In this document: positions 31,324 through 40,905 of the stretch, piece after piece
Numbering within the stretch: position 1 is the stretch's first letter
How the letters are laid out: every line of letters begins with the position of its first letter
From: a virus
DNA length: 64,000 bases
Reading direction: 5' to 3' (one strand)
IMG/VR virus record: IMGVR_UViG_3300023116_000009
Coordinates: 32,001 to 96,000 of that record
The notes under the pieces: generated by a model
What the model was told of the DNA's origin: nothing
Database searches by the model: none
What the model saw: only the letters and a program-made list of their open reading frames with translations
Translations under genes and position numbers: made by a program

Positions 31324-32226
31324 TCAGAACTCTTCGTTGGCGAGAGAGTCGAAGTAACTGTAGGTGTCGTCACTAGCGTTGGCAGCAACAGCAGTCAACT
31401 CTTGCTTCAACTCTTGAGGCACAGGAGGTGCTTCATAGCGAGGAGTAGGAGCACCGAAGTCCATCTCTTCATCACGAACTTCAGCAGCAACAGGACGACC
31501 ACTCAGCACAGCATTGAGTCGTGCCTGAAGTTCAGCATACGTTTTGAAACTCTTTGCGTCGGTGAACTCACGAAGGTCGTGGAGTTGATCATAGATCTGC
31601 TTCAGTTCAGCATCACCAAATCCACCAAGGACAGAGGGACGAGCAAAGGAAGAAGAATCGTAGTTCCAGAAACCAGCAACCTTCTTGATACGCAGGTTGA
31701 AATCAGCACCTTGCCAGAAGTCAAATGGATCAATTGATTCTTGATCACCAAACTCAGGTTGCATTGCTTCGTTGATCTTATCAAAGATCTTCTTGCCAAA
31801 CTTGTAAAGCATAACCTTGCCTTCGTTCTGAGGATTGGCAGGATCCTTGAGAACATAGATGTTTGCATAGTAAGACAGTTTACGCTTCTGCTTACGAGCA
31901 ACTTCTTTATCGCTATCAAGTCCACTATTCCAGAGTTGACGATTCAGTTCTGCAATAGGATCTTGCTGTCCAATGGTGGTGAGAGAGTTCTCAATGTACC
32001 AACCACCAGGACCCTGGAAGGCATGGGACCAGACCTTTGCCCATGGCAGTTCATTGCCCTCTGCCACAGGGAGGAAGCGAATTACAGCACTACCGACGTT
32101 ATCTTTGCCCATGGCAGGTTTCCAGATGCGATCGTCGATATAACCTGATTTACCTTCAGTTTTGTTCAGTTCTGCGGTCAACTTGCTGAGCAGGGAACCT
32201 TTGGACTTCAGGGATTCGAAAGACAT
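31324..32226 (-). CDS. gp32: Single-stranded DNA-binding protein gp32
   Basis: AVIRFLP...WYIENSLTTIG...KRKLSYYANI...DPFDFWQGADF. Confidence 0.95.
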   Translation of the reverse strand: MSFESLKSKGSLLSKLTAELNKTEGKSGYIDDRIWKPAMGKDNVGSAVIRFLPVAEGNELPWAKVWSHAFQGPGGWYIENSLTTIGQQDPIAELNRQLWNSGLDSDKEVARKQKRKLSYYANIYVLKDPANPQNEGKVMLYKFGKKIFDKINEAMQPEFGDQESIDPFDFWQGADFNLRIKKVAGFWNYDSSSFARPSVLGGFGDAELKQIYDQLHDLREFTDAKSFKTYAELQARLNAVLSGRPVAAEVRDEEMDFGAPTPRYEAPPVPQELKQELTAVAANASDDTYSYFDSLANEEF

Positions 32227-40224: not shown

Positions 40225-40260
40225 ATTATACCGAAAAAAAGAGAGGGTGTCAACCCTCTC
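40225..40260 (-). promoter_or_regulatory. Combined intrinsic terminator and sigma70 promoter
   Basis: GAGAGGG-TTGACA-CCCTCTC-TTTTTTT-CGG-TATAAT (17-nt spacer). Confidence 0.8.
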
Positions 40261-40474: not shown

Positions 40475-40692
40475 CGTTCCTTCAGTCGTTTGCGTCCTAT
40501 GCCTCTAAAGAAAAGCATACAGGATCAGTATGATCCATCCATTTAAAGATAAGTTCGACCTTTTCAGATGGACTAAAAAGTTCGGACTCTAATATTCCTT
40601 GAGATAACCACTCAAAGTCCTCACACTTTAAATAATCTGAAGATGGGACATGAGTAGCGAGTAGTAAACTGAGAAATAGCATAGGATGAACG
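40475..40692 (-). promoter_or_regulatory. glnA (glutamine riboswitch)-like aptamer 2, with an ORF inserted in P2
   Basis: CGTTCA-TCCTATGC...GCATAGGA-CGCAAACGAC-TGAAGGAACG. Confidence 0.55.
40497..40682 (-). CDS. Hypothetical protein, 61 aa, nested between aptamer halves
   Basis: ORF track; hydrophobic N-terminus and two Cys. Confidence 0.6.
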   Translation of the reverse strand: MLFLSLLLATHVPSSDYLKCEDFEWLSQGILESELFSPSEKVELIFKWMDHTDPVCFSLEA

Positions 40693-40755
40693 CTCCGTTC
40701 CGCGACTTACTTGCGTCTCATTCGCTATTCGCAAACAGCGAATGGGATGAACGAC
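40691..40755 (-). promoter_or_regulatory. glnA (glutamine riboswitch)-like aptamer 1
   Basis: GTCGTTCA-TCCCATTCGCT-loop-AGCGAATGAGA-CGCAAGTAAG-TCGC-GGAAC-GGAGCG parallels the glnA consensus (CGUU...P2...CGGAAGUAAG...GAAG.AACG). Confidence 0.65.
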
Positions 40756-40797
40756 AGGTCTAGTATAGACCACATCAACTATTTAGTCAAGTGGTCT

Positions 40798-40905
40798 TTA
40801 TTTTTTCTTCCCCCCGTTCTTAGCTTTCTTCGCAGTCGCGTTGCCCTGGTTCTGCTTCTTGTTGTTCGCAGTGCCCTTCTTGCCCTTGTTTGGTGACTTG
40901 GACAT
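40798..40905 (-). CDS. Very basic 35-aa peptide (MSKSPNKGKKGTANNKKQNQGNATAKKAKNGGKKK)
   Basis: Hand-translated; codon usage resembles the highly expressed genes. Confidence 0.6.
   Translation of the reverse strand: MSKSPNKGKKGTANNKKQNQGNATAKKAKNGGKKK

Follow-up and report, generated by a model that had tools for sequence, protein, structure and literature searches.

On the minus strand of a T4-like cyanomyophage genome, a transcription unit of about 520 nt was found whose leader shows a new architecture for the glutamine-I riboswitch, with a gene nested in it. The unit combines a glnA-type glutamine-I leader, a complete gene of 61 codons (ORF61) and a DUF4278-like gene (ORF54), and has its own promoter and terminator. 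Covariation among relatives and homology to a compact relative indicate that the leader corresponds to one interlocked aptamer, which is predicted to bind glutamine. The explanation that we consider probable for the whole arrangement is an interlocked glutamine-I switch that holds ORF61 in its P3 arm and places ORF54 under the control of glutamine and translation. The sequence analysed (hereafter the window) is a stretch of 64,000 nt, positions 32,001 to 96,000 of the IMG/VR record IMGVR_UViG_3300023116_000009, and all coordinates refer to it. The window also contains manA RNA, wcaG RNA and a set of nine tRNA genes.

The unit starts with a sigma-70-type promoter (TTGACT-17-TATACT; 40790-40762, minus strand) that matches the consensus at 10 of 12 positions and is conserved in position in relatives. 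Its -10 box ends 8 nt upstream of the aptamer, so that transcription probably starts around position 40755. At the other end, 3′ of ORF54, lies a strong intrinsic terminator (40261-40240, minus strand) composed of a 9-bp stem followed by a U run. Bracketed by this promoter and terminator, the unit appears self-contained. An inverted repeat (GGTCTA-TAC-TAGACC; 40757-40771, minus strand) overlaps the -10 box, and its arms vary in relatives yet stay complementary (AGCAC/GTGCT, GAGT/ACTC, AGACAG/CTGTCT). The repeat may serve as an operator or, should some transcripts begin upstream, fold as a hairpin. Just upstream of the riboswitch promoter terminates a 35-aa Lys/Asn-rich ORF (MSKSPNKGKKGTANNKKQNQGNATAKKAKNGGKKK; 40798-40905, minus strand), for which no family match was found. 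The terminator hairpin of the unit is overlapped by a perfect sigma-70 consensus promoter (TTGACA-17-TATAAT; 40225-40253, minus strand) directed at the next gene (ORF 40204-39875, phrog_1615).

The region matched 415 phage records, nearly all of them Synechococcus or Prochlorococcus phages, and the unit, as traced by sequence, is widely spread among cyanomyophages. A scan of cellular genomes with GGAACGGAGCGTTCATCC gave 20 matches against about 17 estimated by chance, and four of these had the whole element. None of the four, which were located on a 194-kb contig of a Synechococcus MAG and on short contigs of marine MAGs, was a clear chromosomal copy, and they are probably phage DNA. In four metatranscriptome runs, contigs of relatives covered the conserved strands and ORF54, in a form that shows neither strand nor transcript ends, and some of these contigs had other inserts in place of the ORF region.

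The original prediction for this locus described two tandem glutamine-riboswitch-like aptamers, the second of which would contain a whole ORF in its P2 stem. All the sequence features on which it was built were found between 40755 and 40474 of the minus strand. The leader opens with a first CGTTCA (40753-40748), whose CGUUC (40753-40749) forms the 5′ strand of an outer P1 by pairing with GAACG at 40479-40475. This helix is paired in 100% of 107 aligned relatives, with C-G in 104 and U-A in 3 at the junction-side pair. It is followed by a P2 hairpin (UCCCAUUCGCU / AGCGAAUGAGA, with one C.A mismatch; 40747-40716), in which 4/4 counted pairs covary and which is free of an ORF in the window phage. 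The next segment is the junction strand CGCAAGTA (CGCAAGUA in RNA; 40715-40708), invariant in the 107 sequences, which in the Rfam alignments equals the glnA consensus CGGAAGUA with a G-to-C change, as in glutamine-II. The following AGTCGCG (40707-40701) includes AGUCG (40707-40703), which pairs with CGACU (40488-40484) and is aligned by Rfam as P3. These P3 strands are also paired in 100% of the 107 sequences, with G.U variants in five.

Where the loop of P3 would be expected, the window has an insertion of 214 nt (40702-40489). It begins with an inner hairpin, GAACG-GAG-CGUUC (40700-40688), made of GAACG (40700-40696), GAG (40695-40693) and CGTTC (40692-40688). One pair of this hairpin is G-C in 101 and C-G in 6 of the 107 sequences and is paired in every one of them. 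A stem around ORF61 then follows, its 5′ strand UCCUAUGC (DNA TCCTATGC; 40686-40679) holding the ATG of ORF61 (40682-40680) and its 3′ strand GCAUAGGA (DNA GCATAGGA; 40502-40495), the exact complement, holding the TAG (40499-40497). Directly 3′ of this stem, CGCAAACGACTGAAGGAACGG (40494-40474) contains CGCAAA, CGACU, GAAG and GAACG in this order, and thereby the 3′ strands of P3 and of the outer P1. The inner junction thus repeats the outer junction in permuted order (CGUUC-A-stem-CGCAA-P3-GAACG). A divergent relative (L181, 600-900) has a larger and different ORF that ends in ..EWDASRA and reaches into the CGCAAGUA strand; its P3 is swapped whole for GAGCAUA/UAUGCUC (7 bp) and its second inner stem is compact.

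The assignment to glutamine-I comes from a compact natural relative that lacks the ORF (L016). The gathering cut-offs of Rfam are 35 bits for RF01739 (glutamine-I) and 33 bits for RF01704 (glutamine-II), and no glutamine-family match at the gathering threshold was found in the whole window. A permissive scan of the window detected the first half of the leader only, with 15.8 bits for RF01739 and 13.6 bits for RF01704, both below threshold. L016, in contrast, reached 43.6 bits with RF01739 as one composite aptamer. The alignment started at the first CGUUCA and its hairpin, continued through CGCAAGUA and a P3 (AGU..ACU) that enclosed 38 nt and carried the inner unit, and finished at the last GAAGGAACG. 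Therefore, the predicted glutamine-riboswitch leader was recovered with the Rfam model in the ORF-free form, while the window itself fell below the cut-off because of its 193-nt insert. Our own covariance model, built from seven compact composites, found the two halves of the window leader apart (20.8 and 15.1 bits) and did not span the ORF. The E-loop strands of the glutamine-I junction, ACGGAAGUA and GAAGG, are present as ACGCAAGUA (one G-to-C change) and GAAGG; both are Rfam-aligned in L016 and invariant in relatives. Membership in glutamine-II was rejected, as the scores of the window (13.6 bits) and of L016 (25.9 bits) stayed below the cut-off of 33 and the columns of the GGAACG/pseudoknot hairpin were unmatched.

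The arrangement of the P1-type strands was compared among relatives from two IMG/VR samples, one collected with a 23-nt pattern of the 3′ strand (at least 120 stretches) and the other with an ORF54 profile that is independent of the RNA sequence (the best 80 of 564 confirmed matches). With six phage records added, 182 loci were parsed in full. We labelled the four strands S1 (CGUUN), S2 (NAACG), S3 (CGUUN) and S4 (NAACG) in 5′-3′ order, so that a nested fold pairs S1 with S4 and S2 with S3. In the nested pairing, all 24 pairs were 98% paired in the 107 sequences, 11 of them with double changes, and none of 500 shuffles equalled it. S2/S3 are changed to CAACG/CGUUG in six relatives (L005, L116, L032, L054, L077 and L207), S1/S4 to CGUUU/AAACG in L133, and both strand pairs are changed together in L130 and L135. 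Despite these changes (6/107 flip the inner pair and 3/107 the outer), S1:S4 and S2:S3 stay fully paired.

Two independent tandem aptamers, each with its own P1, with the ORF in the P2 loop of the second and with digital or logic-gate control, are very unlikely in our assessment. Each of the two units does have CGUUCA, a hairpin, CGCAA and GGAACG, tandem glnA RNAs have been mentioned (PMC2864571), and the weak Rfam matches to unit 1 (15.8 and 13.6 bits) and of glutamine-II to unit 2 of L016 (25.9 bits) point in the same direction, as does a local S1:S2 helix in the minimum-energy fold (MFE) of the free leader. However, every single-unit match lies under its Rfam cut-off, unit 1 has no GAAG strand, and unit 2 has neither a GUA strand nor its own P3. 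The natural changes in the P1 strands, all compensated in the nested pairing, leave the tandem P1 pairs unpaired at those positions in 6 and 7 of the 107 sequences, with zero compensation. Since most positions of P1, P3 and the inner hairpin are invariant, this choice of the nested over the tandem pairing rests on 10 of the 107 sequences, which are partly related. Nearest-neighbour energies were -85.4 kcal/mol for the nested, -83.2 for the tandem and -97.1 for the minimum-energy fold, a model that selects neither state. From the L016 alignment, the strand variants and P3, ORF61 is thus placed within the P3 arm of one composite aptamer and not, as the original prediction had it, in the P2 stem of a second one.

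The preferred reading of one interlocked aptamer could be extended, and not replaced, by regarding the inner junction as a second, circularly permuted glutamine core that shares P3, so that two glutamines would bind, perhaps cooperatively. We regard this as a tentative possibility. The inner CGUUCA, CGCAA and GGAACG are near-invariant where a plain hairpin would drift, and each of the published ligand contacts (C1:G, G2:C and the G of CGCA; PMC6698751) has a counterpart in the inner junction. Flipping among the inner pairs affects only the one next to the junction, which is non-conserved according to the same study, and the divergent L181 still has GAACG-GUA-CGUUC. On the other hand, an inner 'CG' stands in the place of the outer GAAG and an inner 'A' in that of GUA, with no E-loop, and the inner P1 is closed by a 3-nt loop at the ligand-binding end. 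The invariance could also reflect a decoy (S2 with S1 in the off state), a recent duplication or gene conversion, or the DNA target of a homing endonuclease.

An 8-bp stem surrounds ORF61 (40686-40679 with 40502-40495). In the 107 aligned relatives, pairs 1-4 are paired in 98-100%, all five counted pairs have changes on both sides, and none of 500 shuffles matched the observed covariation. Among 111 unique strand pairs, pairs 1-4 are paired in at least 99%, pair 5 in 86% and pairs 6-8 in 34-53%. Pair 4 is C-G in 83, U-A in 22 and U.G in 4 of them, and the conserved stem has the consensus UCCY(A)/(U)RGGA. The covariation of start and stop pairing that had been proposed as a check in homologues was seen for the first four to five pairs; judged from these strand pairs, the 8-bp pairing of start with stop codon in the window is a lineage-specific extension of a conserved stem of 4-5 bp. 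It had also been proposed that the aptamer folds only by pairing the start codon with the stop codon. This does not hold among relatives, where only seven of 108 inner ORFs have their stop codon within the stem, including that of the window (TAG, 15 nt before the usual UGA). A further 98 of the 108 terminate in the aptamer core, at the UGA of CUGAAGGAACG (..GAC GCA AAC GAC TGA). These 98 ORFs read through the core, and the C-terminus of their proteins, DAND, is set by the RNA sequence.

ORF61 (40682-40497, minus strand) is an open reading frame with a PHROG match (phrog_13397), and its evolution is that of a protein. In relatives, dN/dS is 0.1-0.3 at a dS of about 1.0-1.6, entropy is highest at third codon positions, and neither of the two other frames is open in any sequence. 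As judged from this pattern of substitutions, ORF61 is a real gene, and the predicted enclosure of a whole ORF by a helix is borne out, since the stem covaries and the ORF is under protein selection. The protein has 182 clusters of relatives, none of them named. Its AlphaFold (AF2) model is a small helical protein (mean pLDDT 88), and cysteines C20 and C56 are conserved. No Pfam match was found, no PDB fold matched the model at E ≤ 0.001, and an Atlas search gave no match at ≥ 0.9. When ORF61 alone was used to look for related loci, a single GC-rich locus (L001) came up, which was unrelated. Because extensive folding is predicted for its interior, the insert of 186 nt might be read as a structured, non-coding RNA domain with an accidental ORF; this is extremely improbable given the substitution pattern above, indels in threes and the conservation of the cysteines and the fold.

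In 112 of 122 loci from the pattern search and the phage records, the gap between the second CGTTCA and the CGCA strand measures 143-389 nt, with common insert lengths in steps of three (153, 156, 159, 162, 186, 189, 192 and 195 nt). In the remaining ten, a compact hairpin of 12-27 nt replaces the insert (e.g. UCCC-UUCG-GGGA). The GGAG at 40696-40693, composed of the last stem G and the loop GAG of the inner hairpin, lies 10 nt upstream of the ORF61 AUG and is likely its Shine-Dalgarno sequence. Of 147 forms with an ORF, 138 have GGAG, compared with one of eight ORF-free forms (Fisher's exact test, with relatedness ignored: p = 2e-7).

Some relatives have a second nested gene. Among 155 unique relatives, 44 have an ORF of 65-75 aa within the P2 hairpin; in the loci of the first sample, such an ORF (MLSILLALTLAHH..PYGWHMSCERFLQRR..C) was found in 31 of 122. 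Examples are L012:7821-8018 and L026:5438-5635, and the window has none. The P2 ORF has its stop codon in the 3′ strand, and the identity of this codon changes together with the 5′ strand: UCUUAUG/CAUAAGA (TAA), UCUCAUG/CAUGAGA (TGA) and UCCUAUG/CAUAGGA (TAG). Alignment of the three nested-ORF families with hhalign gave probabilities of 87, 62 and 53%, the best match including the RNA-dictated DAND tail, and the P2 ORF is probably a distant paralogue of ORF61.

Other insertions were also observed. An HNH endonuclease gene occupies the loop of the inner hairpin, exactly between GGAACGGAGCG and CGTTCA, in three loci (L007:499-1071, L045 and L128), and two others (L060 and L170) have an insert of about 70 nt whose two ends match the ends of the HNH gene, a remnant. 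In its invariance, the riboswitch DNA resembles a homing site. In about a quarter of the loci (e.g. L015, L028, L042 and L104), an additional conserved module, AACGGAUCC-hairpin-AGAAGGUUAAUUU, lies between the aptamer and the ribosome-binding site, directly after GGAACGG. Its hairpin covaries (CUCG/CGAG, CAGC/GCUG, CACCC/GGGU) and its loop is often GAAA. The window is without this module.

The nested genes might be passengers, that is, small and possibly once-mobile ORFs that sit in insertion-tolerant loops and use the riboswitch promoter without interplay with the aptamer. Compact ORF-free forms occur and are presumably functional, all four combinations of presence and absence of the inner and P2 ORFs were seen, the HNH gene lies in the inner-hairpin loop of some phages, and group I introns too carry ORFs in their loops. 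We nevertheless judge this reading to be unlikely. The AUG is fixed 10 nt downstream of the C of CGUUC in 104 of 108 inner ORFs and in 22 of 31 P2 ORFs, and the stop falls within the 3′ strand or the aptamer core, so that the RNA determines the final codons (DAND). Also, the identity of the P2 stop codon covaries with the 5′ strand, GGAG follows the presence of an ORF, and ribosomes are physically required to unwind the aptamer.

ORF54 (40439-40275, minus strand; phrog_545) is the proposed regulated gene, a DUF4278-like (IF17-like) ORF with two YRG motifs. The DUF4278 family includes the glutamine synthetase (GS)-inactivating factor IF17. ORF54 itself scored 22.2 bits with DUF4278 (PF14105; E = 1.8e-4), below the gathering cut-off of 25.3 bits, and among 20 relatives 15 matched at E ≤ 0.01. 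Its Shine-Dalgarno sequence AGGAG (40451-40447, minus strand) is overlapped by UUCUUUUAG (40458-40450, minus strand), which can pair with the proposed sequestor strand CUGAAGGAA (40485-40477, minus strand), which in turn overlaps the 3′ strands of the aptamer. The helix forms when the 3′ segment is folded alone and is present in the MFE of the whole leader, and an equivalent sequestor helix of 5-9 bp was found in the minimum-energy fold of 96/96 unique short platforms. The duplex energy has a mean z of -2.5 relative to shuffles, 5% of the single-sequence shuffles equalling it, and variation among relatives affects one side of the helix only. According to the literature, glutamine riboswitches turn expression on by exposing the ribosome-binding site (PMC6212724, PMC6698751), and one has been found in the leader of gifB/DUF4278-type genes (PMC6212724). 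A DUF4278-like gene downstream and a helix overlapping its ribosome-binding site fit this view.

For the switching of ORF54, glutamine binding and all the regulatory steps are modelled on the Synechocystis gifB leader. The early-type promoter would yield a transcript of about 520 nt. In its leader, as covariation and the homology to L016 show, the outer P1 (40753-40749/40479-40475), P2, CGCAAGUA, GAAG and P3 build the canonical three-way junction, and P3 opens into a second junction formed by the GAACG-GAG-CGUUC hairpin and the ORF61-enclosing stem UCCUAUGC/GCAUAGGA. As in the gifB leader, glutamine would stabilise the outer P1 and the junction, and closure of P1 would remove CUGAAGGAA from UUCUUUUAG beside the ORF54 Shine-Dalgarno sequence, so that the IF17-like ORF54 would be on at high glutamine. 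The ORF61 AUG is at the base of the enclosing stem, and a closed aptamer should hinder its initiation. Translation of ORF61 would require ribosomes to open this stem together with P3 and, in the majority of relatives, also the switching strand, on which the ORF ends. Folding and translation should therefore exclude one another, as had been predicted, and we find this mutual exclusion plausible. ORF61 and ORF54 may be set reciprocally, or be coupled through glutamine and translation, and a ribosome terminating on the switching strand might free the ribosome-binding site of ORF54 regardless of glutamine. Since ORF61 of the window stops 15 nt before the usual UGA, this coupling may be weaker in the window phage. 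A more elaborate form, a translation-gated double glutamine sensor in which two cores share P3, genes occupy P2-type stems, and ribosomes and glutamine together decide on the GS inhibitor, is doubtful at present. If true, the riboswitch would read out both a metabolite and the state of translation in the infected cell.

Riboswitch aptamers are usually regarded as compact non-coding domains. Here a validated riboswitch class holds complete, selected genes in its helices, with start and stop codons taking part in pairing and last codons dictated by the aptamer core. The locus is a natural system for the competition between ribosome and ligand over one RNA fold. The unit probably lets phages tune host nitrogen assimilation, via the IF17-like protein, by the glutamine level of the infected cell. 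Standard Rfam scans miss such leaders, and cyanophage glutamine riboswitches are therefore under-counted. In the literature searched, mentions of them are confined to lists or to 'tandem' glnA RNAs (PMC2864571, PMC9964418, PMC9602691, PMC6212724). The view that the ORF-in-stem layout is undescribed agrees with our search of the literature on glutamine riboswitches and cyanophages, in which neither an ORF inside an aptamer nor the interlocked topology was described. One preprint (bioRxiv 10.1101/2025.10.05.680603) proved unrelated, dealing only with an engineered theophylline riboswitch.

The leader resembles glutamine-I RNAs (RF01739; gifB leader, PMC6212724; structure, PMC6698751) in its CGUUC/GAACG P1, P2, CG(G/C)AAGUA and GAAGG strands and P3, and, like the gifB leader, it lies 5′ of a DUF4278/IF17-like gene and is a plausible ON switch acting by release of the ribosome-binding site. 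It differs from them in that P3 ends not in a hairpin but in a second junction repeating CGUUCA-stem-CGCAA and GGAACG, and in that a complete gene, with its start and often its stop in the helix or core, is enclosed by one of its helices, or by each of two helices in some relatives. With glutamine-II (RF01704, PMC6698751) it shares the CGCA junction strand and the short DUF4278-type ORFs of marine picocyanobacteria, and a two-piece form of that class is also known in which the glutamine aptamer assembles from separated strands (PMC6698751), but the hairpin enclosing GGAACG and the pseudoknot topology are absent. As in tandem riboswitches (glycine; tandem glnA, PMC2864571), there are two aptamer-like repeats per leader; unlike in these, the repeats are interlocked and domain-swapped, the first 5′ half pairing with the last 3′ half, and this is the topology that the covariation suggests for the 'tandem' glnA RNAs of the literature. 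Like group I and II introns, this structured RNA tolerates or exploits an ORF in a peripheral helix, but it is a ligand-sensing aptamer and no ribozyme, and the ORF encodes no endonuclease, the HNH genes of some relatives being in another loop. Finally, as in leader-peptide attenuators, translation of an upstream ORF can remodel the downstream RNA; the nested ORF, however, is not a short sensor peptide but a conserved protein of 53-75 aa.
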